NCBI GenBank assembly: GCA_965204375.1
Contig: OZ241986.1
Coordinates: forward strand, 1,920,001-1,984,000
Reading direction: 5' to 3'
From: Candidatus Latescibacterota bacterium
GTDB lineage: Bacteria > Latescibacterota > UBA2968
DNA length: 64,000 nt
The notes under the pieces are model-generated. The model was not told the DNA's origin and made no database searches. It worked only from the letters and a program-made list of their open reading frames with translations. This document shows, in pieces, positions 1-59,967 of the stretch. How positions within the stretch are numbered: the stretch's first letter is position 1; each line of letters begins with the position of its first letter. Position numbers and translations under genes: made by a program.

Positions 1-502
1 TGCCATTTGGATGAATAGCATCGTCAAAAAATACGCCAGGAGACCTGTGTAATTGGCTCACGATCACGCGTTCTGAACCGTTGATGACAAATGTACCTTC
101 ATCGGTCATCAACGGCAATTCGCCTAAGAACACTGTCTGCTCGACGATATCTTTAACGCGAAATTCGCCATTTCCCTGCTTTTCTCGAGAAATCAGACGA
201 AGCGTTGAACGCAGAGGCACGGCATAGGTCGTACCGCGTTCGAGACATTCTTGCACATCGTATTTGGGAGTTCCAACGGAATAATCGACAAACTCTAAAG
301 AATAGAGATTGTGGGCGTCTGTGATCGGGAAGATACCTTGGAAGACCGCCTGGAGGCCTTGTTTCTCGCGTACTCCAGGCGGTATATCCTTCTGTAAAAA
401 CCAGTCATAAGAATCGAGCTGGATATCCAGCAGATTCGGCATTTCGATTGCAGACGTGAGAGTTCCGTACGATTTCCGGTCAATAAATCCTCTATCTGCC
501 AA
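1..502 (-). CDS. rpoB: DNA-directed RNA polymerase beta subunit (5' part; runs off window)
   Basis: Manual translation: TTG start at 502 after AGGAG; MADRGFIDRKSYG...MPNLLDIQLDSYDWFLQ...VFLGELPLMTDEGTFVINGSERVIVSQLHRSPGVFF; lies downstream of rplL. Confidence 0.97.
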   Translation of the reverse strand, partial: MADRGFIDRKSYGTLTSAIEMPNLLDIQLDSYDWFLQKDIPPGVREKQGLQAVFQGIFPITDAHNLYSLEFVDYSVGTPKYDVQECLERGTTYAVPLRSTLRLISREKQGNGEFRVKDIVEQTVFLGELPLMTDEGTFVINGSERVIVSQLHRSPGVFFDDAIHPNG

Positions 503-575
503 GGGCTCACGCTCCTGTGCTGGAAGGCTAACGGTCAGTTACGGATTTGTATTGCTGCACAAACTTACAACAACC

Positions 576-950
576 CTACTTGAGTTCCACCACCGCACCG
601 GCTTCTTCCAGTTCTGCCTTGATCTGTTCGGCTTCTTCTTTTTCCACGCCTTCTTTAACGGTATTGGGGGCCCCATCAACCAGAGCTTTGGCTTCTCTGA
701 GCCCCAACGAGGTAAGGCTGCGAACAACCTTGATCACCTGGATTTTTTTGTCTCCAGAAGACGACAAAATCACATCAAATTCTGTCTGCTCTTCAACAGC
801 GGGAGCAGCATCACCGCCACCGCCACCAGGTGCTGCAACAACTGCTGCCTGTGCAGTCACACCAAATTTTTCCTCAAGTGCTTTGACCAATTCGGCCAAC
901 TCGAGCACCGAGAGTTTTTCAATTTCGCTAATGATAGATTCAACAGCCAT
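576..950 (-). CDS. rplL: 50S ribosomal protein L7/L12
   Basis: [21 protein letters not shown]...[10 protein letters not shown]...[10 protein letters not shown]...[14 protein letters not shown]; start moved to ATG 950. Confidence 0.98.
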
Positions 951-5272: not shown

Positions 5273-6019
5273 TCAATTCCAATATTCACTTCGTGCAGGC
5301 GGTCCAGGCTTTAATGTCCTGCGGATCAACAGACCCAAAACTCGGGTGAACACCACCAACAAAAAAAAATTAAACATCGAAGCAAGTATCAAACCCACCC
5401 AGGACAAGTGTTCCAATATCAAACTGCCGAGCAGAGATATCCCAAACAGACCCAAACACGCCTGAATGTAATCGATCCGAACAATCTGGCGCAAATCCCG
5501 CCAAACAGGCCCTGGTTCAAATGCCATCCACACGCGCCCTTCGGCAGCAAATCGCGTAAATACAATGGGGAAAAAAACGTAAAAAAAGATAATCGTGAAT
5601 AGCAGCAACAGCGCCGATGTCCCGGCCTCTTCTACAGAACTCGGCATCAGACCCAATACCGAAACCACCATTGCAAAACCCGCAATTCCAATGACACTAT
5701 ATCCCAGGACAATGAGGAACAACCAGAAACCCGCCACCCCGTAAGCCCACCAATTGCTCCAAGAAGGCAAGTTAAGCGATTCAGTACCGTTGAGTGCATC
5801 GACAAAAATTCGGTATAAGTAACCCCAGGCAATGAACAATAATCCAAAGGTTACAACCAGCAACACACCCGCCATCTCAAGTCCAATTTGCCCGGTGAGA
5901 ATCAGCACCAGAACCAGTGTGGGCAGCAAATTTAAGACGCCACCCGGGATAATTTTTTGCCACCAGCCAGGCGTCTGAAACAGGGTGCGGAGTGTATTAA
6001 ATAAAATAATGCCAAACAT
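5273..6019 (-). CDS. DUF4013-like multi-pass membrane protein
   Basis: WWQKIIPGG...WGYLYRI...LNLPSWSNW pattern and several hydrophobic helices; start uncertain (6019 or 6061). Confidence 0.6.
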   Translation of the reverse strand: MFGIILFNTLRTLFQTPGWWQKIIPGGVLNLLPTLVLVLILTGQIGLEMAGVLLVVTFGLLFIAWGYLYRIFVDALNGTESLNLPSWSNWWAYGVAGFWLFLIVLGYSVIGIAGFAMVVSVLGLMPSSVEEAGTSALLLLFTIIFFYVFFPIVFTRFAAEGRVWMAFEPGPVWRDLRQIVRIDYIQACLGLFGISLLGSLILEHLSWVGLILASMFNFFLLVVFTRVLGLLIRRTLKPGPPARSEYWN

Positions 6020-6032
6020 AGCTTTCCACTGG

Positions 6033-7226
6033 TCAGACTGCGTCAAGTGCCCGTCCGACATCGGCAATAATATCCTCGGTGTCTTCAATGCCTACGGCAT
6101 AGCGCACCAACTCATCGGCAATCCCAATTGCCAATCGGTCTTCGCGCGCCAATTCGTAATACGAAATAGATGCGGGATGCGAAACGAGGCTCTCCACACC
6201 TCCCAGACTGGCCCCGATACACGGGATTTGCAAGCGGTCAATAAAAGCCAGTGTACCTGCCTCATCAGCATCTAAATCAAAACTCACCAGCCCGCCAAAT
6301 CCACGCATCTGCGCTTTGGCAACATCGTGGTGTGGATGGCTTTCCAAACCCGGATAATACACGCGCTTTACCCGATCGTGCTTTTCCAAAAACTGCGCCA
6401 ATAGTAGCGCCGTTTCATTTTGCTTACCCATTCGCAGTGGAAAAGTCTTGATCCCCCGGATCAGCAAATAAGCGCAATGCGGATCGATCACCCCTCCCAA
6501 AATACCTCGATAGTCGCGAATCGCACCAACAAGGGGCGCATTGCCCAGCACAGCACCAGCCATCAAATCGTTGTGCCCCCCCAAATACTTGGTCGCCGAA
6601 TGAATGACCAGATCAACGCCAAATTCGAGCGGACGCTGGTTTAAGGGCGTGGCAAATGTGCTGTCAATAATCGTCTTAATCCGATGCCTTCTTCCAATGT
6701 CAACCAGCTTTTCCAGATCGATCACATTGAGGTGTGGATTTGTCGGAGACTCGGAAATAATCACCCGCGTGTTATCTCTGATTGCGCCTTCCAATTCGGC
6801 GTAATCACCCGCGTGAACAAATGAGGTCTCAATACTAAATTTTTTTAACACCATCTGACAAAATTGTGCGGTCTTGCGATAGCAGTCATCCATAATCACC
6901 GCGTGGTTTCCGGTTGATAGCATGCCCAGTAGCGTAGTCGTCACAGCACTCATACCCGACGAAAATAAAATAGCGGCCTCTGCGCCTTCCAATTCGGCGA
7001 GCTTGGATTCTGCAGCATGCTGTGTTGGATTGCCGTAGCGCCCATAGTCAATCTGCGGGTTTTGACCATCTACAAACGCTTTAACAGCATGCGTATCTTC
7101 AAATACATAAGTCGATGTCTGCGCAATGGGCACTGTCAGAGATTTTCCCCAGTGTCCCCTTTCTTCACCTGCATGAACCGCCTGTGTTCCCGAACAGGGC
7201 GCGTGCGTTTCGCACTTTTCAGACAT
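6033..7226 (-). CDS. metB: PLP-dependent cystathionine gamma-synthase (plant-like, Cys/Met metabolism family)
   Basis: YGRYGNPT, ESPTNP, IDSTFATP, HSATKYLGGHND (PLP Lys), SLGGVESL; DCYRKT motif; GGAG RBS; SAM-II leader upstream. Confidence 0.8.
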   Translation of the reverse strand: MSEKCETHAPCSGTQAVHAGEERGHWGKSLTVPIAQTSTYVFEDTHAVKAFVDGQNPQIDYGRYGNPTQHAAESKLAELEGAEAAILFSSGMSAVTTTLLGMLSTGNHAVIMDDCYRKTAQFCQMVLKKFSIETSFVHAGDYAELEGAIRDNTRVIISESPTNPHLNVIDLEKLVDIGRRHRIKTIIDSTFATPLNQRPLEFGVDLVIHSATKYLGGHNDLMAGAVLGNAPLVGAIRDYRGILGGVIDPHCAYLLIRGIKTFPLRMGKQNETALLLAQFLEKHDRVKRVYYPGLESHPHHDVAKAQMRGFGGLVSFDLDADEAGTLAFIDRLQIPCIGASLGGVESLVSHPASISYYELAREDRLAIGIADELVRYAVGIEDTEDIIADVGRALDAV

Positions 7227-7237
7227 GCGCCATCTCC

Positions 7238-7266
7238 AAAAAAAAGCGGAGCCACAAAAGCCCCGC
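7238..7266 (-). terminator. Terminator-like hairpin 2 in metB leader, abutting the RBS
   Basis: GCGGGGC-TTTTGTG-GCTCCGC-T8-GGAG on minus strand. Confidence 0.65.
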
Positions 7267-7275
7267 GCAGTACGC

Positions 7276-7304
7276 AAAAAAACCGGACTAAAAAGCCCGG
7301 TTTT
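7276..7304 (-). terminator. Terminator hairpin 1 in metB leader
   Basis: AAAACCGGGCT-TTTT-AGTCCGGTTTTTTT on minus strand, directly after the riboswitch. Confidence 0.7.
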
Positions 7305-7312
7305 GGGAATAA

Positions 7313-7361
7313 CTTTTTAGCGACTTGTTTAAAGTGGCTGCAATATGCCGCAAATCACCAC
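7313..7361 (-). ncRNA. SAM-II (SAM-alpha) riboswitch aptamer
   Basis: GTGGTGATTTGCGGCATATTGCAGCCACTTTAAACAAGTCGCTAAAAAG matches the recalled SAM-II consensus (GUGG/CCAC stem, UGAUUUG/CAAGUCG pseudoknot, GCUAAA tail); upstream of a Met-pathway gene. Confidence 0.85.
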
Positions 7362-7411
7362 TTGCCATAGCTGTATTCTGGGAATGTAAACAAAACCCCC
7401 AACCATGTCAA

Positions 7412-8761
7412 CTATCGATTGGCTTCAATCCGATCAAAAATCGCCTTTTTTACCGCATCGGCTTCGGGAGGCAACACAACGGGTTCATTGCGGTAATGTG
7501 AGCTGACACCCCAATCCTGTAACTGATCCCGATGATAGCCCATCTTAAACTCGCTAAACTTCAAACCATGAGCCGTTGAAATCACGATCACCCGATCACT
7601 TTTCTGAATCACACCCCTGTCAACCAACTTGAACAATGCTGCGAAAGCCACCCCGGTATGCGGGCAAGCAAACAAACCCGTGCGGTCGGCACGCGCAGCC
7701 GCATCGGCCAATTCCTCCTCGCTGGCTTGCTCTACGACACCACCGAATATTTTAAGCGTTTGGATCGCTTTTTCCCGACTCACCGGATTGCCGATCTGGA
7801 TCGCACTCGCCAATGTCGGCTGTGCCTGAATCGGTTCAAAACTATCAAAATTCTTTTCAAAACTACGGTAGAGCGGGTTTGCCCTATCGGCCTGAGCAAC
7901 CGCAATGCGCGGCAACCGGTCAATTAAACCAAGGGCTTCCATTTCGAGAAAACCCTTACCGAGCGCACTCACATTGCCCAGATTTCCACCGGGAATCACA
8001 ACCCAATCTGGAACTTCCCAATCAAATTGTTGCACCAATTCGATGCTGATTGTTTTTTGTCCCTCTACCCGCAGCGAATTCATCGAATTGGCCAAATAGA
8101 TATTTTCCTCATGGCAAATTTCCTGTACGAGCCTCATACATCCATCAAAATCGGTCTCCAAACTCAACACCAGCGCACCATTGGCCAGAGGTTGCAAAAG
8201 TTGTGCGGTCGAGATTTTGTCCCTCGGCAAAAAAACCACCGATTGTATGCCCGCCGCCGCACAATACGCAGCCAATGCCGCCGAGGTATCCCCAGTAGAT
8301 GCACACGCAACCGCCGGAATACGCGTCCCTTCAAACAGCATCTGTTTCACCATGGATACCAGAACCGTCATGCCCAAATCTTTGAACGATCCCGTATGGC
8401 TGTTACCGCATTGCTTAACCCACAAATCCTCAACGCCAATTTCTCGGCCCAAACGCTCGGCCCAAAACAGATTGCTACCCCCTTCGTACATCGACACCAC
8501 ATTGTCTTCGTGAACTACGGGGCAGACCAGTTCTTTTTTCCCCCATACAGAACTGCCATAAGGCCATTTTGTCGTCATATAACGCTTATCAAATAACCCG
8601 CGCCAATAACTGCCCGACTTGCGTTTGAGCATCTCCATATCGTGCGCCACTTCGAGCAATCCCCCACAGGTCGGACATGCGTAAATCACATCTGTCAACG
8701 CATATCGCCCTTCGCATCCGCGAAAACACTGAAACCAAGCATTGTAAGTTGTATCGTTCAT
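7412..8761 (-). CDS. thrC: Threonine synthase (plant-type, N-terminal Cys-rich extension)
   Basis: [16 protein letters not shown] (PLP Lys), [46 protein letters not shown]. Confidence 0.92.
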
Positions 8762-8834
8762 ATTTTCGTTACGCATTATGACAAAACTCAGCACAAATGC
8801 ACTAAACTCGCCAACACTTCCACATATCACAGAA

Positions 8835-9095
8835 TTATTTCAATGGAGCTATTTTGCCGGGATCCTCTAAATCTTGCGCTCGTTCCCAAGCTGCCCGCAA
8901 TTCCGCTTGATGCAAAGACGCCCAGCGAAGCACAAGTCGTTGCTCTCTTGTTGGCAAGAAGCCTTTTAGTACTTCAAGAGTTTCAATTCCAATAACTGCC
9001 TGGTTATCACCATACAGTGCGTGAAAATGCGCTGGCGGATGTTCTCTAAAATGAATTTGGATGATAATTCCGTAAAAGCGACAAAGTTCAGGCAT
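8835..9095 (-). CDS. DUF4160 domain protein (putative TA component)
   Basis: [29 protein letters not shown]...[17 protein letters not shown]. Confidence 0.85.
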
Positions 9096-9372
9096 TCTCA
9101 ATCGCAACTTGTGCGCCCGACATTACTTCGTCCACAGACTTGCCCGTGAGTTCCATATATAGCGCGTCAGAACAAATATCCAGATCATCGCCCCAGGCTA
9201 TTGCACCCCCATCTGCTACGCGCGCAATCTCGAAGAATGCGCGATCATTCCAAGCAGCAAATACGCCACGCCCAGCCATATCTGATAAGTCTATCTCTCC
9301 CTCGATTCCGTCCGAATAGCGCACCCAGATGCAATAACCATCACGCGGTTCCACTGCAATTGGTCGTATCAT
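9088..9372 (-). CDS. DUF2442 domain protein (putative TA component)
   Basis: VEPRDGYCIWVRYSDG..GEIDL...AIAWGDDLDICSDALY; overlaps the DUF4160 start. Confidence 0.85.
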   Translation of the reverse strand: MIRPIAVEPRDGYCIWVRYSDGIEGEIDLSDMAGRGVFAAWNDRAFFEIARVADGGAIAWGDDLDICSDALYMELTGKSVDEVMSGAQVAIENA

Positions 9373-17007: not shown

Positions 17008-17775
17008 TCAAATCCGCTCCAACGCACGCGCCTCAACCCAGCCGCCGAGACCCGATCGCAAGCGCACCAGCAACCACCCACCTTCAACCCGTTCAATCTC
17101 GACCTTCGTGCCCTCGTGCAGTGCGAACACCTGTAAAAAATCGGAGCCAGGCCCGCTGCGGCCAATAGCCTCATCTACCAAAATGATAGCTTTGGGAATG
17201 CTGTGTTGATGCGCCTTAAACGCCAGCATAGCTGTACTGCTCAAAAGTCCGCCTGCAAAAACCACCAGCAACCCACCCCACAGCAAGCGCCGGACCGGCA
17301 CAAAAATCCAACACACCGCTACACCACCCATTAAAAAAACAAACACACAAACCATAACTGCCAGCGCATCGAGGGTAAAAAACGCAAAAATCGCTTGCAA
17401 AATCCGCGTCAAAATATTGACCTCATCTTCGCTTTCTCGATCTATCTTCAGGGCATTAGCAAACTGCAAATTCGTCAGAACATCCCGATCATCCGGCATC
17501 AAATTCAAAGCGCGTTCATAAGATAAAATCGCACGCCCGAGTTGCGCGTTTTTAAAATACGCATTGCCCAGATTATAATATACCTCGCCGTTGTTCAGCC
17601 CCTGTGCGATAACGCGCTCATAAGCCGAAATCGCCGCATCAAAATCCCCGGCGCGATAGTGTTCATTGCCCCGATTGTACAGCGCGACAAGAGCTTCTGA
17701 GGCCAATACCGCATCCACGCCAAGTATCGCAACTGCGACAACGGGGTATAACAACCGTACTATCACCGTCCTCAT
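17008..17775 (-). CDS. batE: BatE-like TPR + SH3 membrane protein
   Basis: YYNLGNAYFK..QLGRAILSYERAL..PDDRDVLTNL; two TM helices; RSGPG....VFALHEGTKVEI...GWV. Confidence 0.8.
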   Translation of the reverse strand: MRTVIVRLLYPVVAVAILGVDAVLASEALVALYNRGNEHYRAGDFDAAISAYERVIAQGLNNGEVYYNLGNAYFKNAQLGRAILSYERALNLMPDDRDVLTNLQFANALKIDRESEDEVNILTRILQAIFAFFTLDALAVMVCVFVFLMGGVAVCWIFVPVRRLLWGGLLVVFAGGLLSSTAMLAFKAHQHSIPKAIILVDEAIGRSGPGSDFLQVFALHEGTKVEIERVEGGWLLVRLRSGLGGWVEARALERI

Positions 17776-17777
17776 GA

Positions 17778-19622
17778 CTAAATACACCGCTCCAGCGCAC
17801 CGATCAAATCTTCGGTCTGCGCGAACAAAGCCTGCATCTGTTCTGCCGAAATCTGCCCCGGCGCAAACCGCGCCTGATCGCATTGACCAAATACGTCTTG
17901 AACGCCTGCAATCACCTGTGCATCTACACCGCTTTCCGCCAGCACAGCACCAATCTGGTCCGCCGTTAAACCCGCCGCTGCGCGATTGGTTCGATCTGCG
18001 AAAAACTGTGCCAAAGACCTGTGAACTTCACCGTGAAAACCCGCGCTATCGCCCGCCTCCATTAACCCTTTAGCCTTGCCCAAACGCCGCTGTACTTCCG
18101 AGCGCGAACGCCTTCTGCGCGCATAAGCCACATCGCCTTCTAAACGCACGCGATGACGTCGATAAGCATAAGCACCGGCCACTCCCAAAACGGGAACCAG
18201 TTGCAAAAGCCAAAACCCACTGCGCTGATAAAGTAACAAGCCCTGATCGGCCAAATGCATCCGGTCAGGTTTGATATACCGGATATCGCTCCCCAATGCA
18301 CGCACTTCTTCACCTATCAACCCATCAACCGGCTGCGGCATCTGTTCACCCGGCGTCACATGCAAAGTAATCGGTTTGGTCTGCGCGGTTTTATACCGCT
18401 TCTGCACAGGATCAAAATAGGCCAGTGTAAAAGGCGGCAATATCACCTGCCCTATTTTATGTGGAATCGCCACATACTCAAAAGTTTTTTGTCCGCTTAT
18501 GCGCGTGCCACGCTTTCGCGTTTCCAAATTCGTCTTGGGATCATAAAACTTAAAACCCGACCGCTCCGGACGAACAGGCTCGTTAATCGCGTGCAAATTT
18601 CCCGCCCCCTGCACCACTATCTTCACCGCAACGGGATCACCGGCTTTCACCGTACCTGGAATCGCCTCAGCGCGCATCTCAAATTGCCCAACGGTGCCGC
18701 CAAACCCCTTCGGCGCACCAGCGGGCAACGGCTTCACCTCAATTTCAATATCGCCTGACCGCACCGTCACTTGCTGCGTATCAAATGTATTAAATGGATC
18801 AAAATCGAACAGACTGCGCGGCCGTCGCCCCGCAACAATTTCGCAATTCACCTCAAGTTGCTCCAGGGTGTGCTTACCTGCCGTTGTCGGAAATAGCACC
18901 AAACGCTTGAGCAACGCCGTATTAAACGCGCGCCCATCGACAACCTCCCGCTGCATATTCAAACGCTGGGCATCAAACACAGTCTCTGCCCAAAATCCGG
19001 TAAACGTCGGCACATGGCCGTATTGCACATTTCGCAAATCATAGCGCGTAAACAATTTATAGGTCACCCCCACCTGTTCCCCCACATAAACCGCTCGTTT
19101 TTCGGGAATCGTCTGCAAAAACAAATTTTGTTCAATCTCCTGAATCTCTGACTGTCCCATTGACCGTCCCGTTGATGGCGCAGGGCGCGTCTGAGGGCGA
19201 CCACTTCTTTTCACTACCTCAACGCGCACCTGATCAGACCGAATCGTCTTATCTTCATGGATCAACTGTGCCGGACCGAGCACATAAGTGCCAGCTCTCT
19301 GTGCGCGAAAAGAGAAATGATATGTCGTCGTGCGCTTTGTAGTCATCGTACCATTGACAATGTTGACGGACATCGACGTAGAAGACGTACTCCCCGTCAA
19401 TTGCAACCCGTCAGGCGTGGGAACCTGGGGTGCAGACACACTCCCCATCTGTGCGGCCTCCACCTCCACAGTGAACTGAATCAGATCGCCAACTTCGACC
19501 CGAGTGCGATTCACCGAAGCCTGCATAGACACATCCTGTGCATCAACCCCCTGTGCCCATAATAGAGCAAACAAAACACCGCACAAAAATATCCATCTCT
19601 CCCTACCACGCATTGCCGTCAT
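17778..19622 (-). CDS. batD: BatD family protein
   Basis: ASVNRTRVEVGD, VYVGEQV, VKPLP..AP.GF.G.VGQF, GAGNL, YFDP...Y, DIRYIK; position in Bat cluster. Confidence 0.85.
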   Translation of the reverse strand: MTAMRGRERWIFLCGVLFALLWAQGVDAQDVSMQASVNRTRVEVGDLIQFTVEVEAAQMGSVSAPQVPTPDGLQLTGSTSSTSMSVNIVNGTMTTKRTTTYHFSFRAQRAGTYVLGPAQLIHEDKTIRSDQVRVEVVKRSGRPQTRPAPSTGRSMGQSEIQEIEQNLFLQTIPEKRAVYVGEQVGVTYKLFTRYDLRNVQYGHVPTFTGFWAETVFDAQRLNMQREVVDGRAFNTALLKRLVLFPTTAGKHTLEQLEVNCEIVAGRRPRSLFDFDPFNTFDTQQVTVRSGDIEIEVKPLPAGAPKGFGGTVGQFEMRAEAIPGTVKAGDPVAVKIVVQGAGNLHAINEPVRPERSGFKFYDPKTNLETRKRGTRISGQKTFEYVAIPHKIGQVILPPFTLAYFDPVQKRYKTAQTKPITLHVTPGEQMPQPVDGLIGEEVRALGSDIRYIKPDRMHLADQGLLLYQRSGFWLLQLVPVLGVAGAYAYRRHRVRLEGDVAYARRRRSRSEVQRRLGKAKGLMEAGDSAGFHGEVHRSLAQFFADRTNRAAAGLTADQIGAVLAESGVDAQVIAGVQDVFGQCDQARFAPGQISAEQMQALFAQTEDLIGALERCI

Positions 19623-20349
19623 ATCTCCTGCCTCGCAACTTCAATTTGCGTCGCTTTTGGGATTCTTCCTCTCGCGCCTTCATCGCATTGAGAATCCGCG
19701 CCGCCTCCTCGGGCGTCATCTCTCTGGGATCGGGCTGTTCGCCCTGCTGTTGTTTTTGCTGATCCTGCTGATCTTGCTGATTCTGTTGATCCTGCTGATC
19801 TTGCTGATTCTGTTGATCCTGCTGATCCTGGTTATCCTGATTATCCTGATTATCCTGTTGATCTTGTTGATCCTGGTTATCCTGTTGATCTTGTTGATCC
19901 TGATTCTGATTTTTATCCTGCTGATTCTGATCCAGTTTTTCCAGTGCCAATTCTAAATTTATTTTGGCGTCTATATCATCCGAATTCAGTTCCAATGATT
20001 TTTTATAAGCCCCTACAGCTTCCTGGAACTTCTCTTGCCGAAACAGCGCATTGCCCAAATTGTAATGTGCCGCAGCAGACATATCCGGAGGAGTGCCTTC
20101 GGTGGCACGCCCCATCTCCTGCAAAGCCTCGGCATATTTCCCCTGCTTGTAGAGCGCATCGCCAGCATTAAAATGCAACTCCGGTCGCGTGCGCGCCTCT
20201 TGTTGCGCTTCCAAATACCGACGCAACGCCGCTTCGTACTCCCCCTTTTCAAATAGAGCATTGCCCTCTTCATTCTTTTTTGCCACGGGATCGAGAAATG
20301 TCCACCCCAAAAATGGCAACATCAGCAAGACATATAAAAATCGCTTCAT
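19603..20349 (-). CDS. batC: BatC-like TPR protein with Q/D/N-rich linker
   Basis: HYNLGNALF..EKFQEAVGAYKKSL..NS.D.DAKINLELAL; QDQQDN repeats; MTPEEAARIL..M...E tail. Confidence 0.85.
   Translation of the reverse strand: MKRFLYVLLMLPFLGWTFLDPVAKKNEEGNALFEKGEYEAALRRYLEAQQEARTRPELHFNAGDALYKQGKYAEALQEMGRATEGTPPDMSAAAHYNLGNALFRQEKFQEAVGAYKKSLELNSDDIDAKINLELALEKLDQNQQDKNQNQDQQDQQDNQDQQDQQDNQDNQDNQDQQDQQNQQDQQDQQNQQDQQDQQKQQQGEQPDPREMTPEEAARILNAMKAREEESQKRRKLKLRGRRYDGNAW
19747..19932 (-). repeat. Degenerate 9-nt tandem repeats encoding (QD/QN/QQ)n
   Basis: Units such as GATCCTGCT/GATCTTGTT; exact 27-nt duplication at 19761-19814. Confidence 0.9.
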
Positions 20350-20366
20350 AACCTCACGTCCATAGT

Positions 20367-21392
20367 CTAAGTCTCAAATCGTCCGCGCCACACTTCTTCA
20401 CTGCGTCGCCGATCCGATAACAGGGCTTCGCTCACAAAACACAACAGCGCGAAAGCCAACGGCCATTGAAACCTGTGAATATACTGTGCGTAACGCTGCG
20501 TACCCAAATCGCGTTTCTCCATCTCTGCAATCCGTTCATGCACCGCCTGCAATCCAATCCCCCCACCGCTGGCGCGCACATATAATCCATCGGTCACACG
20601 CGCAATCTCCTTCAAAGTTGCTTCATCCAAACGCGTCTTGACAATTTTGCCCTCAGCATCCTTCAAATAATCTACCCTATTGCCATCGCGGACCGGAATC
20701 AACTCACCTTCCGCAGTCCCCACACCCACAGCAAAAATTCGTACATCCTCCTCCGCTGCCGCTCGCGCTGCTGCAATGGGATCACCCCCGTGATTTTCAC
20801 CATCCGTAATCAAAATGAGCGCTTTGTATTTCCCATTGCGCGACCCAAATCCTCGAATGGCGGCGCGAATCGCTTCGGCAACCGCTGTACCCTGCTCTGA
20901 AATCAATGTGACATCTGCCTGTCCCAAAAACATCTTTGCCGCGCCATAGTCCAGCGTAAGCGGACAGAGTACATGGCTATAACCGGCAAAAGCCACCAGG
21001 CCGATGCGGTCGCCTTCAAGGCGATCGATCAACCCCTCAATTTCAAAACGCGCACGATCCAGCCTGTTGGGTTTAATATCCTCAGCCAACATACTCAACG
21101 AAGTATCCAGAACAATTACCAGATCTACGCCACGACGATGAATCAATTCCAATTCGGTGCCAAACTGCGGTTGCACCAGTGCCAGAATCAGAAAAACAAA
21201 CCCGATACACATCAGCGCGGATTTTATGCCTTGCCGCATGCGACTGACACCCGAAGCGAGTTTATCCATCAACTCGGGAGCACCAAACGCATACAGTGCC
21301 CTGCGCTTGCGCCGAAAAGCCCACCAGTAAAAAAGCGCGAAAACCGGCACGCATAATAGGAAATAAAAAGCCTGTGGATCGCCAAATCGCAT
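20367..21392 (-). CDS. batB: BatB-like vWA domain protein
   Basis: LDTSLSMLAEDIKPNRL (MIDAS), DRIGLVAFAG, PLTLDY, LITDGENH. Confidence 0.88.
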   Translation of the reverse strand: MRFGDPQAFYFLLCVPVFALFYWWAFRRKRRALYAFGAPELMDKLASGVSRMRQGIKSALMCIGFVFLILALVQPQFGTELELIHRRGVDLVIVLDTSLSMLAEDIKPNRLDRARFEIEGLIDRLEGDRIGLVAFAGYSHVLCPLTLDYGAAKMFLGQADVTLISEQGTAVAEAIRAAIRGFGSRNGKYKALILITDGENHGGDPIAAARAAAEEDVRIFAVGVGTAEGELIPVRDGNRVDYLKDAEGKIVKTRLDEATLKEIARVTDGLYVRASGGGIGLQAVHERIAEMEKRDLGTQRYAQYIHRFQWPLAFALLCFVSEALLSDRRRSEEVWRGRFET

Positions 21393-22391
21393 CTAAGGCA
21401 ACCTCCGAAATCGCGTATTGCCCAGTATCAATTCTAATAATAGTAACGCCAACCCTGGATAGAGAAACAGGTGAAACAATTCGCGATAATCCACATACTC
21501 GCGCACTTTGATCTCGGTCTTTTCCATTTCGCCAATCTCAGCGTATATCTCCTCCAGCTTTTCTTCACTCGTCGCTCTAAAATATCTCCCACCCGTTGCA
21601 TCCGCCACTTTTTTAAGCGTTTCTTCATCAATCTCAACTTTGACCGGCACAAATCGCTTGCCAAAAACCCCATCAACCTCCTGCATAATCGTTCCCCTGC
21701 TACCCGCACCAATCGCATAAATACGAATACCCACAGCCTCTGCTGCGCGCGCTGCGGTCATCGGGTCAATCTCACCGCGATTATTCTTCCCATCGGTCAA
21801 CAAAATAATCACCTTACTCTTAGCCTCAGATTCTCGCAAACGATTCACCGCAGTTGCGATCCCCAAACCAATCGCAGTGCCATCCCAGTCCTTGGTGGCA
21901 ATTTCAACACCTTCGAGAAAACTCAAAAATACGCCGTAATCCAGCGTAAGCGGACATTGCGTATAGGCTTCTGCGGCAAAGACCACAAGCCCCAGGCGAT
22001 CATTGGCACGCCCCTGTGCAAATTGCGCCACCACCTCTTTACACACTTCCAACCGCGTCTTGCGCTGGTCCGCCAGATCTTTGGCCTCCATACTGCTCGA
22101 AACATCAATCGCCAGCGCAATATCAATACCCTGGCTCAAAATTTCTCGGCCCTCACGCCCCGACTGCGGCCGCGCCATCGCCGCGATGAGCAAAGCCAGA
22201 GCCACACAGCGAAACGCGATCAAACTGTGCCGCAACTTTAAAAAAAAGGACGGGCCAATACGCCGAAAAAGGCGCGTATCGGAAAAACGAATGCGCCCCG
22301 ACTTGCGCCTTTCGCGCCCAATATAGCGATAGATGAGCACCGGAATAAACAACAGGAGCAGTAACCACTCTGGATTGGCAAAACGCATCAC
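21393..22391 (-). CDS. batA: BatA-like vWA domain protein
   Basis: FANPEWLLLL, ARPQ, IDVSSSM, GTAIGLGIATAVNRL, SKVIILLTDGKNNRG, TGGRYFRA. Confidence 0.9.
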   Translation of the reverse strand: MMRFANPEWLLLLLFIPVLIYRYIGRERRKSGRIRFSDTRLFRRIGPSFFLKLRHSLIAFRCVALALLIAAMARPQSGREGREILSQGIDIALAIDVSSSMEAKDLADQRKTRLEVCKEVVAQFAQGRANDRLGLVVFAAEAYTQCPLTLDYGVFLSFLEGVEIATKDWDGTAIGLGIATAVNRLRESEAKSKVIILLTDGKNNRGEIDPMTAARAAEAVGIRIYAIGAGSRGTIMQEVDGVFGKRFVPVKVEIDEETLKKVADATGGRYFRATSEEKLEEIYAEIGEMEKTEIKVREYVDYRELFHLFLYPGLALLLLELILGNTRFRRLP

Positions 22392-23305
22392 TCGGCTACC
22401 TCCTGTGTCACAGAAGGTGTAACCAGAATGCTCACAATGTCGCGCACACCATCCATCGCCTCGTGCGCCATGTAATCACGCGGTGCAAATTTGGCAAACT
22501 TGACCCGATCTGCTTCATTCAAAAAACCTTCTATAGCCATTACCAATTGATCGTCAAATGCTTGGGCGCGCAAATCCCGCCCAATCTCAAACGTCGTACG
22601 CTCCACTGCATGTACGGGGGTTTTGGCTTCCAAACACCGTCTCAAAACAGCCGACAATAGAGAATAATACTGCCGGTAATTTTCCCGCTCTATCAGCCCC
22701 AACTGCCCCACCCTGTCCAATTCCTCTAACCAGTTGACAGGCGGCGGTGGCAACTCGACTTCCGGGCGATGCCTGCGTCGATAAACATACCAGACCAACC
22801 CTGCAAGCAATAGAATTAGCCCACCAACCGCCAGCCAAAACCACGCGGGGATCTGTGCTACAATAACCCTGGGAGGCTTCACATCGCGAATATCCGTTGT
22901 GCCTTCTGGCCTTACACTCTGCACCAGCACATCAATGGGTTGCGACGTGATTTTTCCAGAATCGCCCTCTGCATCAACAAAATGCAAGGAAACGGGTGGC
23001 ACGCGGAACGCGCCCACCTGATAAATCGCCAGCACAATGTCTTGCGTTTCCCTCACCCGTCCATTTTCGAGTTGCTCTGTTTCAACCCCACCCGTGTGCC
23101 GAATTTCGAATGGCCGGGGAAAATCTTTTCCATACGAGATTTCCGCCTTATCATCAGTCCCGCGATGGACGCGCAGACGCAAAACAAAAGGGTCGCCAAT
23201 TGTAATGGTATCGCGGTCAACCCCCGTCAAAAATTCTACCGCTGCATCGGTCGGAACCGTTTGTATCCCGGTCCACATTGCGAATAAAAAATAAATCGCA
23301 CGCAT
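22388..23305 (-). CDS. Bat-cluster membrane protein (Ig-like domain + TM + DUF4381-like tail)
   Basis: DRDTITIGD, DIRDVKPP, TM helix, YYSLLS..LR..LE...AVERTT.E, ADRVKFAK. Confidence 0.7.
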   Translation of the reverse strand: MRAIYFLFAMWTGIQTVPTDAAVEFLTGVDRDTITIGDPFVLRLRVHRGTDDKAEISYGKDFPRPFEIRHTGGVETEQLENGRVRETQDIVLAIYQVGAFRVPPVSLHFVDAEGDSGKITSQPIDVLVQSVRPEGTTDIRDVKPPRVIVAQIPAWFWLAVGGLILLLAGLVWYVYRRRHRPEVELPPPPVNWLEELDRVGQLGLIERENYRQYYSLLSAVLRRCLEAKTPVHAVERTTFEIGRDLRAQAFDDQLVMAIEGFLNEADRVKFAKFAPRDYMAHEAMDGVRDIVSILVTPSVTQEVAE

Positions 23306-26177: not shown

Positions 26178-27380
26178 TTATCCTCTATCTCTCCCCCGAG
26201 TAATCAAGTATTCGGCTACTGCGCGTGCGACAATACACTCTTCGTCGGTTTGGACAATCAGAACGGCAACCTCGCTATTAGATGTCGATATCATGCCATC
26301 TGCGGGAGGATCGGCATTTGCGGTCTCGTCGAGATGAACGCCCAGGTATTCAAGACCGATGCAGACGCGTCGGCGCACATTTGCCCCGCGCTCGCCAATG
26401 CCCCCGGCAAAAGCAATCGCATCTAAACCACCCAGTGCAGCAGAGCAAGCTCCGATTTCTCTTTTGATCCCATAACAAAACGCCTCCAGAGCGAGGCGTG
26501 CGCGTGCGTGCCCCTTTTGAGCGGCTTCTTCGAGATCGCGCACATCGCCGCTAATACCCGAAATGCCGAGCAAACCGCTTTCTTCTGATAGGATGCGGCT
26601 CATCTCGCTTGTCGATAAATTTTCGCGGTCCATTATATAGGGAATAATGAACGGATCAATAGTTCCAATGCGCGTGCTATTGATAATGCCTGTTTGAGGC
26701 GAGAAGCCCATCGAGGTGTCTATGGATTGACCACTGCGCACCGCGCACAAAGAGGCACTCCCGCCGAGATGGCAGGATACCATGCGGAGATCCTCGCGGT
26801 TGAGTATTTGCGCCGTGCGTTGCGAAACGTAGCGATGAGACGCGCCGTGGAAACCGTATTTGCGAACCCCGTATTTTTCATACCAGTCGTAGGGGACGCT
26901 GTAAATATAGGCATAATCGGGTATGTTGACGTGGAAGGCAGCTTCAAAAAGTCCAATCAGGGGCAGGTGGGGCGCACATTGCTCGAAAATGCGAATCGCC
27001 TGGATATAGGGCGGGTTATGGGCAGGCGCGAGGCTATTGTAGTCCGCCATGCGCTGCAAAACGTCTTCAGTGAGAAGATAAGTACCCGCTTTTCCGCGCA
27101 TGTGAACAGTCTTGAATCCAACGGCATCGAGGTCAGACAAGTCAGAGAGCACACCGGTGCGCGCATCTGTCAGACGCACAATAACATCGCGTACAGCAGA
27201 TGGATAATCCGGCAAGTGTTGTTCGGTTTCAACTGTGTATTCGCCAATCTGATGGGCAACGGGAGAAGACGAATCGCCGATGCGTTCGAGACGACCTTCG
27301 GCGAGTACCGCTTCATCGGTCATGTCAAACAGGCGATATTTAAATGACGTAGAGCCTGCGTTTGCAATGAGGATTTTCAT
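26178..27380 (-). CDS. ackA: Acetate/propionate kinase
   Basis: ILIANAGSTSFKYRLF, LAPAHNP, RKYGFHGASH, CHLGGSAS, DTSMGFSP, AGGIGE, TDEE. Confidence 0.93.
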   Translation of the reverse strand: MKILIANAGSTSFKYRLFDMTDEAVLAEGRLERIGDSSSPVAHQIGEYTVETEQHLPDYPSAVRDVIVRLTDARTGVLSDLSDLDAVGFKTVHMRGKAGTYLLTEDVLQRMADYNSLAPAHNPPYIQAIRIFEQCAPHLPLIGLFEAAFHVNIPDYAYIYSVPYDWYEKYGVRKYGFHGASHRYVSQRTAQILNREDLRMVSCHLGGSASLCAVRSGQSIDTSMGFSPQTGIINSTRIGTIDPFIIPYIMDRENLSTSEMSRILSEESGLLGISGISGDVRDLEEAAQKGHARARLALEAFCYGIKREIGACSAALGGLDAIAFAGGIGERGANVRRRVCIGLEYLGVHLDETANADPPADGMISTSNSEVAVLIVQTDEECIVARAVAEYLITRGRDRG

Positions 27381-29920: not shown

Positions 29921-30849
29921 GAAGCTGTTTTAAAACCCTGGCGTTTAAGCAAGTCTGTTAATTAAGAGATAAATCATACCGATGTGAATAAAGGCTTCAC
30001 TGTTGTCCGTTAAGCGTTCATAATCCTTTGACAGTCGGCGGAAATTGAATAACCAAGCAAAGGTGCGTTCAATGACCCAACGGCGTTTGACTATTTGAAA
30101 GCCTTCCCCTTTTGGGGTAACGACCTCAAGATCAATCTTATGTGTTTGTTTTCTATCAGCGACCCATTCCTTGAGGTCTTCGCCGCGATATCCGCCATCA
30201 ACCCACAGCTTGCGTAAGCGTGTCACGCCTGTTTCAAAATACTGATTGAGCACCTTTTTGAGGCCATCACGATCTTGGAGATTAGCCGGTGAGACATAGG
30301 TGCTGATGACCAGTCCGAGGGTATCGACAAGCAGATGGCGTTTTCGTCCATTGATCTTCTTTCCCGCATCGTAACCCTTTGAGTCTGCTTGTGTTGCTGT
30401 CTTAACACTTTGGCTGTCAATACAGCCTGCTGATGCGTCAGGCTTGCGCCCTTGCCGTTTGCGCTCCCTACGTGAGAGTGCTTGTTGCACCTGCTGAAAG
30501 ATGTCTTGCTCGCGCCATTTGTTGAAATAGCCATACACGGTTTGCCAACAGCCAAAGGTATGAGGCAGCATGCGCCATTGGCAGCCCGTCTTCGTCAGAT
30601 ACAGGATGCCATCAAACACGCGTCGCAAATTGGCAGGTGGACGTCCGGGACCTCCTTTTTGCCATTTGCGTTTGGGCAACAAGGGGATCAGCAGTTGCCA
30701 TTGCGCTTGGGTGACATTTGTCGGATATTGTCTTGGCGTATTCATCGCATGTCCTTTCTTTTTAAGGTTTTTGGATACCCTAAATTTGGACTGATGAATA
30801 CGCTTTTTCAACTCTTTTTTTTATTTCTCCATAATTTTAAAACAGCTTC
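29921..30849 (-). mobile_element. Complete IS5-family insertion sequence (IS1031-like), 929 bp
   Basis: Perfect 15-bp terminal inverted repeats GAAGCTGTTTTAAAA (29921-29935) and TTTTAAAACAGCTTC (30835-30849); TAA target duplication at 29918-29920 and 30850-30852. Confidence 0.93.
29945..30745 (-). CDS. IS5 family transposase
   Basis: YPTNVT..QW, GILY..KTGCQWRMLP, IDSQSVKT, GYDAGKKINGRKRHLLVDTLG, VDGGY, RWVIERTFAW..FRRLSKDYE. Confidence 0.95.
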   Translation of the reverse strand: MNTPRQYPTNVTQAQWQLLIPLLPKRKWQKGGPGRPPANLRRVFDGILYLTKTGCQWRMLPHTFGCWQTVYGYFNKWREQDIFQQVQQALSRRERKRQGRKPDASAGCIDSQSVKTATQADSKGYDAGKKINGRKRHLLVDTLGLVISTYVSPANLQDRDGLKKVLNQYFETGVTRLRKLWVDGGYRGEDLKEWVADRKQTHKIDLEVVTPKGEGFQIVKRRWVIERTFAWLFNFRRLSKDYERLTDNSEAFIHIGMIYLLINRLA

Positions 30850-32355: not shown

Positions 32356-33180
32356 TTATTCCTTTAACTCTTCCATAACCCGACGGGTAATTTCCCCGAT
32401 GAGATCGTCCTGGGAAGTTTGGGCATCGGCTGTGCCGCCAGCACTCAACGTGCGAATCGTGGGAATACCGCCGTTGGTCTCAGGTTGTGTTGTAGGTGCA
32501 TCGGGGATATCGCACGCTGGATCGGGGCCGCGAAGCCCCATGCGGTTGCGAATAGCGACCAATTTTTCCACCTGTTCCGCATTGAGTTCGTTATACCCGC
32601 CGAGTTGTTGTGCCACAAAAAGTATTTTTGCAAAATGCTCCAGCGTCTCCATCTTGTAATAGGCATTCATCACATCGGTACCGATCGCAGTCGCACCGTG
32701 ATTTTCCAGCAAATAGGCGTCGTAATCTTTGACATATTGCCTGATCGGTTCAGATATTTCTGGTCCCCCCGGCGTACCGTATTCCACAATGGGTATGGCG
32801 CCGAGAGTAATAACCACCTCGGGCAGAACACACATAGTAAGGGGAACGCCTGCAACCGCAAAACCCGTAGCCGTTGGCGGATGTGCGTGTACCACAGCGC
32901 GCACATCGGGGCGCTCGCGATAGAGAAAAATGTGCATCCCAATTTCTGACGAAGGCCGCTTTTGCCCACTCACAAGCGTGCCATCCATGTCCGTAATACA
33001 GAGATCTTCGACCTTGAGAAATCCCTTGGACATACCCGTTGGCGTAGTGAGAATGCGGTCTTCTTCAATTCGGCATGAAATATTGCCATCATTAGAAGCG
33101 ACAAAGCCGCGTTCGTACACGCGACGCCCGGCTTCAACAATATCGAGTTTGGCCTGATGGAGATTCATTTTATGTCTCAT
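32356..33180 (-). CDS. Class II aldolase (fuculose/rhamnulose-1-phosphate type), BMC-targeted
   Basis: NDGNIS, TPTG.SKG, PSSE..MH, VHAHPP, LLENHGA; C-terminal amphipathic peptide DDLIGEITRRVMEELKE. Confidence 0.9.
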   Translation of the reverse strand: MRHKMNLHQAKLDIVEAGRRVYERGFVASNDGNISCRIEEDRILTTPTGMSKGFLKVEDLCITDMDGTLVSGQKRPSSEIGMHIFLYRERPDVRAVVHAHPPTATGFAVAGVPLTMCVLPEVVITLGAIPIVEYGTPGGPEISEPIRQYVKDYDAYLLENHGATAIGTDVMNAYYKMETLEHFAKILFVAQQLGGYNELNAEQVEKLVAIRNRMGLRGPDPACDIPDAPTTQPETNGGIPTIRTLSAGGTADAQTSQDDLIGEITRRVMEELKE

Positions 33181-33449
33181 CCCTTCATATTAATATCATC
33201 CACAACGCCGACGATAACGGAACGCACCGCAGGCAACTCCACATTGAGAACGAGACCCGCCGCGACGCCTTGCCGGATCACGAGGACAATTTCGCCGCGG
33301 CCAACGCCTGCGGCGTCAACTGCAAGAGCCGATGCACCGTCATCTTTGCCATCGGGCGTAATGGGCTGCACGACCATGAGCTTAGCGCTGTTGTAATCGC
33401 TGTGTTTAATAGTCGATGTGACGCTACCGAGAACGCGGGCCAGGAACAT
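33177..33449 (-). CDS. BMC vertex protein (EutN/CcmL, BMC-P)
   Basis: MFLARVLGSVTSTIKH...LMVVQP...AVDAAGVGRGEIVL...IVGVVD. Confidence 0.9.
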   Translation of the reverse strand: MFLARVLGSVTSTIKHSDYNSAKLMVVQPITPDGKDDGASALAVDAAGVGRGEIVLVIRQGVAAGLVLNVELPAVRSVIVGVVDDINMKG

Positions 33450-33519
33450 ATAGAATTTGGGATTCGGGATTTAGCTGCATTCTCCCCTTCTTCTAAGGAG
33501 AGCCGGAGGGTAGGCTACC

Positions 33520-33783
33520 TCATGCATCGACCTGATCGACAATGCCGACAACTGCCGCATCAACCGGGCCGTATTTATCGGGCAGGGCGTTGGGAGCTTC
33601 TCGTGAACCGACCCAGTAGATGGTTTCCCCATCGCTGGCATTGACCACATCAATAGCGACAAAAGCATCTCCTGCTTTATTGTGCTCGTGATCAATCGGT
33701 TCAACGACAAGCAGTCTAAAACCTTTGAGCGAGGCATCTTTGCGCGTCGCCCAAATTTTGCCAATGACGCGACCCAGGAACAT
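33520..33783 (-). CDS. BMC vertex protein (EutN/CcmL, BMC-P)
   Basis: MFLGRVIGKIWATRKD..L.G.RLLVV...VAIDVV.A..GE...GSREA...PVDAAVVGIVD; start moved to ATG 33783. Confidence 0.92.
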   Translation of the reverse strand: MFLGRVIGKIWATRKDASLKGFRLLVVEPIDHEHNKAGDAFVAIDVVNASDGETIYWVGSREAPNALPDKYGPVDAAVVGIVDQVDA

Positions 33784-33806
33784 TTTTACCTCGCGAGATA
33801 CGGGAC

Positions 33807-35243: not shown

Positions 35244-35246
35244 ATC

Positions 35247-35537
35247 TCACTTCTGATAAACCGCTTCACCTTCGATTTCTGCCGTATCGATAATAGCGAC
35301 AATCACAGCATCGACAGGACGATCTTCAGTCACACTCGTCATACGGGCGGAACTCCCACTACAACAGAGCACGACTTCGCCATCGCCTGCACCAACAGCA
35401 TCTACGGCGACCAAAAAACTTTCTTTAAGTTCGAATGCGGGCAAATCGAGCGTTTGGACGATCTGGAGCTTAAAACCCGCCAAGCCGCTGTCTTTTTGGG
35501 TGGCAACCACCGTTCCCACCACCTTGCCGAGGGTCAT
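35247..35537 (-). CDS. BMC vertex protein (EutN/CcmL, BMC-P)
   Basis: GKVVGTVVATQKD..L.G.KL...VAVDAVGAG.GEVVL...GSSAR...PVDAVIVAIID. Confidence 0.93.
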   Translation of the reverse strand: MTLGKVVGTVVATQKDSGLAGFKLQIVQTLDLPAFELKESFLVAVDAVGAGDGEVVLCCSGSSARMTSVTEDRPVDAVIVAIIDTAEIEGEAVYQK

Positions 35538-35540
35538 AGT

Positions 35541-35825: not shown

Positions 35826-35847
35826 GTTGTGTCCTCCTAAAAAATGA

Positions 35848-59930: not shown

Positions 59931-59967
59931 GCGTAAGGAGCAATATTTAGCATTGGGAGGATATTCG

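Follow-up and report, generated by a model that had tools for sequence, protein, structure and literature searches.

A SAM-II riboswitch between thrC and a cystathionine gamma-synthase gene in a Latescibacterota genome: a plausible plant-style branch point at O-phosphohomoserine

The locus described here lies in a 64,000-nucleotide stretch of DNA from a Candidatus Latescibacterota bacterium (contig OZ241986.1 of assembly GCA_965204375.1, positions 1,920,001 to 1,984,000 of the forward strand), which was analysed as a whole and is referred to below as the window. It comprises thrC, the gene of a long-form threonine synthase (TS), followed by a class II S-adenosylmethionine (SAM) riboswitch (SAM-II) and by a gene for an enzyme of the cystathionine gamma-synthase (CGS) family, and it is genuine and conserved, which confirms what had been observed in an earlier, sequence-only reading. 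Together, the two genes encode both enzymes that take homoserine-derived carbon, thrC directing it to threonine and the CGS-family enzyme to methionine. In plants, the corresponding branch point consists of homoserine kinase, a SAM-activated TS and an O-phosphohomoserine-dependent CGS under the control of MTO1. A plant-style branch point at O-phosphohomoserine is plausible for the bacterial locus as well: the CGS-family enzyme would take O-phosphohomoserine, the substrate of thrC, and the two enzymes would compete at one branch point as they do in plants.

The two-gene thrC-CGS unit is kept across lineages, where it is usually translationally coupled, and a shared O-phosphohomoserine is the simplest explanation for it. 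In addition, SAM riboswitches precede the CGS gene in 15 of the 26 loci of its closest group of relatives (group A, defined below), which points to a role of the enzyme in methionine synthesis.

Organisation of the locus

The minus strand carries all the parts of the locus, in the order thrC, promoter-like site, SAM-II aptamer, two terminator hairpins and CGS-family gene. The succession of thrC, aptamer and CGS on one strand, already proposed in the sequence-only reading, is borne out by the list of open reading frames (ORFs) and by Rfam. The present analysis adds that the strand is the minus one and that the aptamer is flanked by a promoter-like site and by two terminator hairpins. The peptide strings quoted at that time were all found in the translations, both those of TS and, for CGS, DCYRKT, DSTFATPLNQ and the HPASISYYELAREDRLAIGI tail.

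According to the ORF list, thrC occupies positions 7412..8761 and encodes 449 amino acids from an ATG at 8761, within an ORF (7412..8830) that offers alternative starts at ATG 8776 and GTG 8830. One base past its stop codon begins the promoter-like site (7383..7411), a sigma-70 type TTGACA-17 nt-TACATT arrangement recognised by a promoter scan and by its conservation. The aptamer (SAM_alpha, RF00521) was located at 7296..7371 with the Rfam covariance model, and its 3' strand, GCUAAAAAG (7313..7321), is proposed as one half of an antiterminator on the basis of its complementarity to the terminator. Terminator hairpin 1, read from the sequence, spans 7276..7304 and consists of AAAA, CCGGGCU-UUUU-AGUCCGG and U7, with the stem-loop at 7300-7283; terminator hairpin 2, found by a terminator scan, spans 7238..7266 and consists of GCGGGGC-UUUUGUG-GCUCCGC (7266-7246) and U8. 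The segment 7224..7237, directly after hairpin 2, holds a Shine-Dalgarno sequence GGAG (7237-7234) and the ATG start codon of CGS (7226-7224), both read from the sequence. The CGS-family gene itself, at 6033..7226, encodes a pyridoxal 5'-phosphate (PLP) enzyme of 397 amino acids (ORF list; Pfam PF01053). Its longest frame (6033..7277) opens at a TTG at 7277, within the leader; homologues of 395-400 amino acids align from residue 1 of the protein that starts at ATG 7226.

The SAM-II riboswitch and its read-out

The aptamer that the sequence-only reading had named was recovered by the SAM_alpha model, from 7371 to 7296 on the minus strand, with 44.7 bits against a gathering score of 36 (E = 7.9e-07 over the whole 64 kb) and across model positions 1-79 of 79. 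No other riboswitch was matched by Rfam in the 64-kb window. Given that the same aptamer stands at the equivalent place in six of the seven orthologous Latescibacterota loci (L001-L006, 39.7-46.2 bits), the match is not due to chance. The Rfam model marks the P1 hairpin only, and the conserved 3' strand is present in the window. The earlier placement of the riboswitch on the CGS side also holds, as the aptamer is positioned to switch CGS off.

The promoter-like site is the top match of the promoter scan, with 10 of 12 positions, in a scan that overall does not rise above shuffled sequences (4 sites found against 4.1 expected). The arrangement TTGACA-17-TAnAnT is found just upstream of the aptamer in all seven aptamer-bearing sequences (the window and L001-L006), and all seven also have a hairpin with a U-run before the ribosome-binding site, with stems that vary among loci. 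The promoter and the terminator are therefore supported by their conservation across loci, not by scan statistics. Hairpin 2, with 8 pairs in the scan, 6 of them G-C, ends directly before the Shine-Dalgarno sequence. Hairpin 1 forms an 11-pair stem in every full-length fold and is missing from the terminator scan list, in our reading since its A and U tracts pair and consume the tail. Tandem terminators behind the aptamer are found in the window and L001 only, the remaining five aptamer-bearing loci having one. The extra hairpin of the window (7300-7283) is flanked by A4 and U7 tracts and, because of them, could terminate transcription in both directions.

The 3' strand of the aptamer (7321-7313) is complementary to a GCUUUUU[AG]G element of the downstream terminator in the seven sequences, with a complement of 9-12 nucleotides. 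In each of them this element is formed by the end of the 5' arm of the terminator and its loop, which in the window belong to hairpin 1 (7296-7288). The energies of the resulting duplexes range from -10.3 to -15.5 kcal/mol, and the antiterminator pairing appears in the minimum-free-energy folds of transcripts ending after the terminator loop in six of the seven sequences. A thermodynamic antiterminator was considered and rejected: full-length minimum-free-energy folds retain the terminator, whether the aptamer strand is free or not, and the antiterminator is for this reason viable solely as a kinetic model in which it acts during transcription.

About 70 nucleotides separate the aptamer, which follows the promoter-like site, from the start of CGS on the same strand, and the terminators stand between aptamer and start codon; this makes transcription termination the likely mechanism, not masking of the ribosome-binding site, and the switch is most likely read out in that way. 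In the kinetic switch that we infer, binding of SAM would lock the 3' strand in the pseudoknot, so that the terminator forms and CGS is not made, while in the absence of SAM the same strand would capture its complement GCUUUUUAG as the terminator emerges, and transcription would read through. A comparable read-out, transcription termination upon SAM binding, has been predicted for the SAM-II element of Sinorhizobium metZ (abstract of PMC9373788), so that a terminator platform has a precedent in this class. No terminator stands between thrC and the promoter-like site, so the terminators of the riboswitch probably also end thrC transcripts at high SAM; at low SAM, a joint thrC-CGS message would probably be allowed by these same terminators.

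Related loci and their gene context

Related loci were collected by a profile scan, with one genome per species, based on an alignment of 19 CGS relatives; at least 600 stretches were matched and 598 of them confirmed, of which the best 80 were retained, with flanks of up to 6 kb on each side in which thrC was searched by tblastn with the window TS (E <= 1e-10). The closest of them, L001, is 96% identical and lies on the complete chromosome of a Candidatus Latescibacterota metagenome-assembled genome (MAG). The 80 loci fall into two groups. Group A includes 26 loci from Latescibacterota, Methylomirabilota, Chloroflexota and MAGs labelled Binatia, Deltaproteobacteria, Myxococcales and Gemmatimonadota, while group B includes 54 loci from Planctomycetota, Hydrogenedentota, Desulfobacterota, Fibrobacterota, Bacteroidales, Leptospirales and others. 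The CGS motif around the PLP-stacking tyrosine reads Y-R-[KR]-T-[RA]-Q in group A and mostly Y-K-[KR]-T-L-E in group B, whose members are 52-57% identical to the window CGS and reach similar scores against tobacco CGS.

In terms of context, 15 of the 26 group-A loci have, like the window, a plant-like thrC immediately ahead of the CGS gene and in the same orientation, against none of the 54 in group B. The pair recurs in Latescibacterota, Methylomirabilota and single MAGs labelled Binatia and Deltaproteobacteria. A further group-A locus, L068, has a long-form TS (45% identical) on the other strand, and two others, L008 and L056, have less than 650 nucleotides of upstream sequence, in which thrC could not have shown. 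All loci were also scanned for riboswitches: a SAM riboswitch lies directly upstream of CGS in 15 group-A loci (6 SAM-II, 9 SAM-I) and in 0/54 group-B loci. The SAM-I (S-box) elements, with 59.6-98.2 bits, precede CGS in L007, L010, L021, L039, L041, L047, L056, L068 and L077, that is, in eight Chloroflexota and a Myxococcales MAG. One CGS family thus stands under two unrelated SAM riboswitch classes in different phyla. Only L008 and L025 have neither thrC nor riboswitch among the group-A loci.

The thrC-linked loci outside the core Latescibacterota have no riboswitch at the gathering score, and their junctions leave no room for one. In eight of these nine riboswitch-less loci, the candidate CGS start lies at most 2 nucleotides after the thrC stop or overlaps it, as in the TGATG overlap of L067; in L063 the CGS start is 54 nucleotides downstream of the thrC stop. 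Judged by these junctions, thrC and CGS would nearly always be translationally coupled where the riboswitch is absent from a thrC-linked group-A locus.

Other neighbours in group A include genes for AdoMet synthetase, methylenetetrahydrofolate reductase (MTHFR) and aspartate kinase. A Pfam scan of neighbouring genes covered 131 ORFs, namely the representatives of 58 clusters with at least two members and 73 singletons at positions +1/-1, and left out 81 singletons at +2/-2 and the singletons at +3/-3. Homoserine kinase, homoserine dehydrogenase and MetA were not found among these 131 ORFs, and the sole candidate for homoserine activation was a cluster of three alpha/beta-hydrolase ORFs identified as MetX (NCBIfam, 528.9 bits with a cut-off of 331). 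The metX gene occurs within 3 of the 54 group-B loci and none of the 26 in group A. At one of these three, L054 from Hydrogenedentota, a second Cys/Met-PLP paralogue (33% identical) stands beside metX (948-2207 and 1-711, minus strand), and these two genes run divergently to the group-B CGS and to a gene with a homocysteine methyltransferase domain, so that two parallel routes to homocysteine may coexist there.

Identity and phylogeny of the CGS-family enzyme

The enzyme matches Pfam PF01053 with 441 bits and remains below every NCBIfam equivalog cut-off, the best being PRK08249 with 396 bits against 600, which ruled out naming its function by NCBIfam. Close relatives carry in public databases either the name "cystathionine gamma-synthase" or a generic PLP-enzyme name. 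Among the 88 distinct PDB sequences matched, the best is tobacco CGS (1qgn, 384.6 bits), in an alignment that starts at tobacco residue 56; methionine gamma-lyase (MGL) structures follow with 317.6 bits and below, Helicobacter CGS with 302, Mycobacterium MetB with 256.9 and Escherichia coli MetB with 247.1.

The lysine of SATKYLGGH and the tyrosine of DCYRKT align with tobacco K261 and Y163, respectively, and K118 aligns with tobacco K165, a position that is Lys or Arg in 27/27 group-A sequences and Gly in representatives resembling MGL, cystathionine gamma-lyase (CGL) and MetB. Lys165 of tobacco CGS, an exposed residue, reportedly binds the distal phosphate of the substrate (Steegborn et al. 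1999), and its basic counterpart throughout group A is a point in favour of O-phosphohomoserine. The window CGS (397 amino acids, aligned from tobacco residue 56) has no N-terminal extension of the MTO1 type. By comparison, the plant representative P0134 (544 amino acids, 809 bits against tobacco CGS) has an N-terminal extension of about 150 residues, which holds a short motif of the plant MTO1 region. Regarding the active site of the tobacco enzyme, a passage of PMC8428831 names Lys261, Y163, Arg423 and Asn211 and describes the roles of Lys261 and Y163.

The phylogeny was built from 217 rows, comprising the window CGS, one CGS from each of the 80 loci and 136 cluster representatives. The latter are what remained of the 150 best found in a search of 1.84 billion proteins once 14 had been dropped, as their match to the window CGS covered at most 330 residues. 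A FastTree analysis of all rows yields a superclade of 116 rows with a support of 100. Within the superclade, the PLP-stacking tyrosine is mostly followed by two basic residues, Arg-Lys in the window, whereas most of the remaining rows have Gly-Gly there. For IQ-TREE, 75 of the 217 rows were picked: 22 from group A (the window, 20 of the 26 group-A loci and the representative P0122), 15 from group B, 9 eukaryote-like, 19 from the rest of the superclade and 10 from the outgroup. The superclade is separated from the outgroup with supports of 99/98, the eukaryote clade is recovered with 100/100 and group B with 100/99. Plant and algal CGS belong to the superclade, from which MGL-, CGL- and MetB-like representatives are excluded; the expectation that the window enzyme would not group with ordinary MetB, MetC or MGL is in this sense upheld.

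Some cluster representatives show unusual architectures. P0121, P0123, P0126, P0213 and P0222, of about 760-800 amino acids, have two matched stretches, corresponding to two Cys/Met-PLP domains per chain, and in P0268 (715 amino acids) a PLP enzyme of the cysteine-synthase type is apparently fused ahead of the Cys/Met-PLP domain, judging from the printed N-terminus only.

The threonine synthase

The window TS passes the NCBIfam equivalog for thrC (TIGR00260) with 223.4 bits over a cut-off of 167.1 and also matches Pfam PALP. Its best solved structure is Arabidopsis TS (1e5x/2c2b, 557.7 bits), aligned from residues 10-438 of the window enzyme to 46-472 of the plant one, and the next match is a bacterial TS with 183.4 bits, aligned from residue 79 only. 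The window enzyme is thus a long form that can be aligned with the plant enzyme over the N-terminal domain. The 120 best relatives in the database all share 70% identity or more with it, and the few that are named are bacterial (Latescibacteria, Gemmatimonadetes, Nitrospirae and Entotheonella); since the named close relatives are all bacterial, plant TS is better placed within a large family of long-form bacterial enzymes.

The N-terminus of the window TS carries a zinc-ribbon-like Cys4 motif (C12, C16, C29 and C32, that is, C-x3-C, 12 residues and C-x2-C; window positions 8666-8728), kept in 112-120 of the 121 aligned rows formed by the window TS and its 120 bacterial homologues. As for regulation, four SAM molecules bind at the dimer interface of Arabidopsis TS according to a passage of PMC6957218. 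Activation of the window TS by SAM is doubtful: dividing threonine from methionine at the level of the enzymes is an attractive idea where thrC and CGS form tight operons, and the divergent Cys4 N-terminus calls for caution.

The homoserine ester at the branch point

From sequence and gene context, the window CGS would somewhat probably use O-phosphohomoserine. Neither metX nor metA was found in the 64-kb window or within the flanks of any group-A locus. For the window, the Pfam scan covered 52 ORFs, of which 49 came from the 75 ORFs of at least 150 amino acids and three were shorter, and left out 24 that overlap longer ORFs.

Several findings weigh against a shared O-phosphohomoserine and its plant-like control. 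The same Pfam scan revealed no homoserine kinase, metC or other methionine gene in the 64 kb. In the IQ-TREE phylogeny, a clade of 49 rows (all the bacterial group-A and group-B rows and 12 other representatives) excludes the eukaryotes with supports of 99/92, and six Latescibacterota rows, the window among them, are sister to group B (95/90) and not to plant CGS. The window CGS is thus closer to group B than to plant CGS, and the earlier description of both enzymes as plant-type stands as far as their best scores against plant structures go and fails as regards the sister group of the CGS. The position equivalent to tobacco K165 is basic in 52 of the 54 group-B sequences too and, being basic in groups A and B alike, does not discriminate within the bacterial clade. 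A sequence signature separating both groups was sought and came down to three consistent positions (117 R/K, 221 L/I and 315 S/T) without known role, so no active-site signature sets the window CGS apart from a relative that is probably linked to acetyl-homoserine. In that relative, L009, the CGS gene lies about 60 nucleotides in front of metX and is co-directional with it, the only such case in group B, and in L054 and L065 metX stands within three genes on the opposite strand, three genes away in the latter. The L009 enzyme scores 405.8 bits against tobacco CGS, above the 384.6 of the window; a plant CGS as best PDB match was on this account ruled out as a substrate test, and plant-likeness does not fix the substrate. 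On the TS side, the aligned Arabidopsis enzyme lacks the bacterial Cys4 motif, and microbial TS, unlike plant TS, is described in PMC6957218, in the passage concerned, as not activated by SAM. The persistence of the terminator in the full-length folds belongs to the same list.

The alternative that draws most on these findings is an ordinary acyl-homoserine pathway, in which the ester taken by the CGS is O-acetyl- or O-succinyl-homoserine, supplied by a MetX or MetA whose gene lies elsewhere in the genome, its adjacency to thrC reflects the clustering of aspartate-family genes and its plant-likeness reflects ancestry. It is favoured by the same-strand CGS-metX pair of the sister clade and the two further loci with metX nearby, by a metX-linked enzyme that is at least as plant-like as that of the window and by the scarcity of consistent differences between both groups; moreover, SAM riboswitches before methionine genes that use acyl-homoserines are commonplace, and the SAM-II abstracts returned by a literature search concern metA and metZ. 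Against it stand the absence of metX from the window and from 26/26 group-A loci within flanks of at most 6 kb, 15 of them with thrC adjacent, and the rarity of a same-orientation metX next to CGS even in group B (1/54). In addition, a CGS start that abuts or overlaps thrC in 8/9 of the riboswitch-less thrC-linked loci is hard to square with loose clustering. An acyl-homoserine substrate is therefore possible, and is the most serious competitor to O-phosphohomoserine, without being the outcome that we expect.

A sulfhydrylase, which would convert an activated homoserine to homocysteine with sulfide or a protein thiocarboxylate and would need no beta-lyase, is compatible with either homoserine ester and is rather unlikely. 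It would agree with the synthase, lyase and sulfhydrylase models of NCBIfam all scoring alike (330-396 bits), none at its equivalog cut-off, and with the failure to find a metC-like gene in the window; the closest characterised relative, however, is a true CGS, that of tobacco, and solved sulfhydrylases score far lower (238-268 bits).

Very improbable is a third possibility, that the thrC-like gene encodes a MetM-like enzyme converting O-phosphohomoserine to homocysteine and that the locus holds two alternative routes to methionine. A bacterial route of this kind, from O-phospho-L-homoserine through the ThrC-like MetM, reportedly exists in Streptomyces (Hasebe et al. 2024); in the window, nevertheless, the gene passes the thrC equivalog and aligns over its full length with a biochemically proven TS at the 557.7 bits given above, no small sulfur-carrier gene was found beside thrC, and the riboswitch stands after thrC and not before it. 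The least credible explanation is a catabolic one, with the CGS-family gene encoding an MGL or a CGL. MGL models do figure among the top NCBIfam matches (TIGR01328, 382.6 bits) and MGL structures are second-best in the PDB, but those models remain far under their cut-offs (382.6 against 549.7), the representative that passes the MGL cut-offs falls in the outgroup of the tree together with a second one scoring below them, and an off-switch responding to SAM, found before the clade in 15/26 loci, would have the wrong sign for degradation.

Returning to O-phosphohomoserine as the shared substrate, the full plant logic would require more than the branch point itself. Homoserine would be activated by phosphorylation only, the long-form TS and the CGS would compete for O-phosphohomoserine, SAM would both activate TS and shut off CGS, and the lineages with translationally coupled thrC and CGS would divide threonine from methionine purely allosterically. 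That all of this operates in Latescibacterota, Methylomirabilota, the relatives labelled Binatia and Deltaproteobacteria and, probably, Chloroflexota is unlikely.

Other genes in the window

Directly downstream of CGS, and on the same minus strand, lies a gene for a DUF4013 membrane protein (5273-6088), whose longest frame overlaps the 3' end of CGS by 56 nucleotides. The same family follows CGS in 5 related loci (L005 being the one scanned), and for that reason the gene may be part of the transcript that the riboswitch controls. On the other side, two small overlapping genes (8835-9372, minus strand like thrC) immediately precede thrC and encode DUF4160 (90 amino acids) and DUF2442 (94 amino acids) proteins; they look like a small two-gene module, possibly resembling toxin-antitoxin systems.

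Farther away, the window contains a microcompartment-type cluster on the minus strand (32356-36824), with genes for a class II aldolase, an EutN/CcmL vertex protein, an aldehyde dehydrogenase and a PTAC phosphotransacylase, and an acetate kinase gene at 26178-27380. A BatA/BatD-type operon, aerotolerance-like and with VWA and TPR proteins, spans 17008-23305. There are also a gene for a DDE transposase of the IS4/IS5 family (29945-30811) and one for a GmrSD-type restriction endonuclease (59953-61911; N-terminal domain, 104 bits), a candidate for defence against modified DNA. None of the other ORFs of the window in the Pfam scan (52 ORFs) is a further methionine or threonine gene.

Implications

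From the perspective of textbooks, O-phosphohomoserine-dependent transsulfuration and a SAM-activated TS are plant features. Full-text literature searches, in which subscription journals are thinly covered and earlier work may have been missed, returned no bacterial O-phosphohomoserine-dependent CGS, no thrC-CGS operon and no SAM-activated bacterial TS. Bacteria are described as using O-acyl-homoserines in passages of PMC4523565 and PMC6957218, and a different bacterial route from O-phosphohomoserine has been put forward in the DUF39 proposal for Desulfovibrio, in part of PMC4045070. A SAM riboswitch before a methionine gene is ordinary; what would be new, as far as sequences can tell, is the pairing with thrC, the plant-clade enzymes and the regulatory replacement, in which SAM-II, SAM-I or direct translational coupling appear to surround the same enzyme across phyla. 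The data hint, without proof, that in some bacteria the routes to threonine and methionine part at the intermediate at which they part in plants.

If this proves true, it would fill in a variant of methionine synthesis that may escape automated pathway annotation, and it would give the plant branch point a bacterial origin. The compact enzymes and the riboswitch could then also serve to engineer the partition between threonine and methionine. Should the full plant logic hold, the plant branch point would be an inherited bacterial invention and not a plant peculiarity, and the window TS would be the first SAM-activated bacterial threonine synthase; should the O-phosphohomoserine reading fail, the locus would still be a clean example of SAM-II outside the Proteobacteria, with a terminator platform.

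Comparison with known systems

Among known systems, the alphaproteobacterial SAM-II riboswitches of metA, metZ and metX are comparable in that the window element matches the whole model above the gathering score and that a methionine gene carries it in its 5' leader. They differ in the host, which here belongs to the Latescibacterota, in the regulated gene, a plant-clade CGS located after thrC, and in the expression platform, which here has tandem terminators (in the window and L001) and an aptamer 3' strand complementary to the terminator loop.

With the bacterial enzymes MetB, MetZ and MetY, which act on O-succinyl- or O-acetyl-homoserine, the window CGS shares the PF01053 fold family, the lysine that holds PLP and a role in committing homoserine to methionine. 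It falls, in contrast, under all their NCBIfam cut-offs, scores 247-302 bits against solved bacterial CGS structures compared with 384.6 against the tobacco enzyme, and has Arg-Lys after the PLP-stacking tyrosine, where the outgroup, MGL-, CGL- and MetB-like sequences included, mostly has Gly-Gly. The relatives of group B have no adjacent thrC and no SAM riboswitch, and three of their loci have metX nearby, although they are sister to the Latescibacterota CGS and have similar scores against tobacco CGS.

Finally, the plant branch point differs from the bacterial locus in several respects: a riboswitch with a terminator stands here in place of the MTO1 nascent peptide; the bacterial CGS is devoid of the plant N-terminal extension and is not sister to plant CGS; and the bacterial TS carries a Cys4 motif that is absent from Arabidopsis TS. 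There are likenesses as well. Both enzymes score best against plant structures, and the CGS shares the motifs of the PLP-stacking tyrosine with plant and algal CGS; the CGS step is repressed by SAM at the RNA level, as predicted here for the bacterial locus; and the genes of TS and CGS are physically coupled here, as would be expected of competitors for one substrate.

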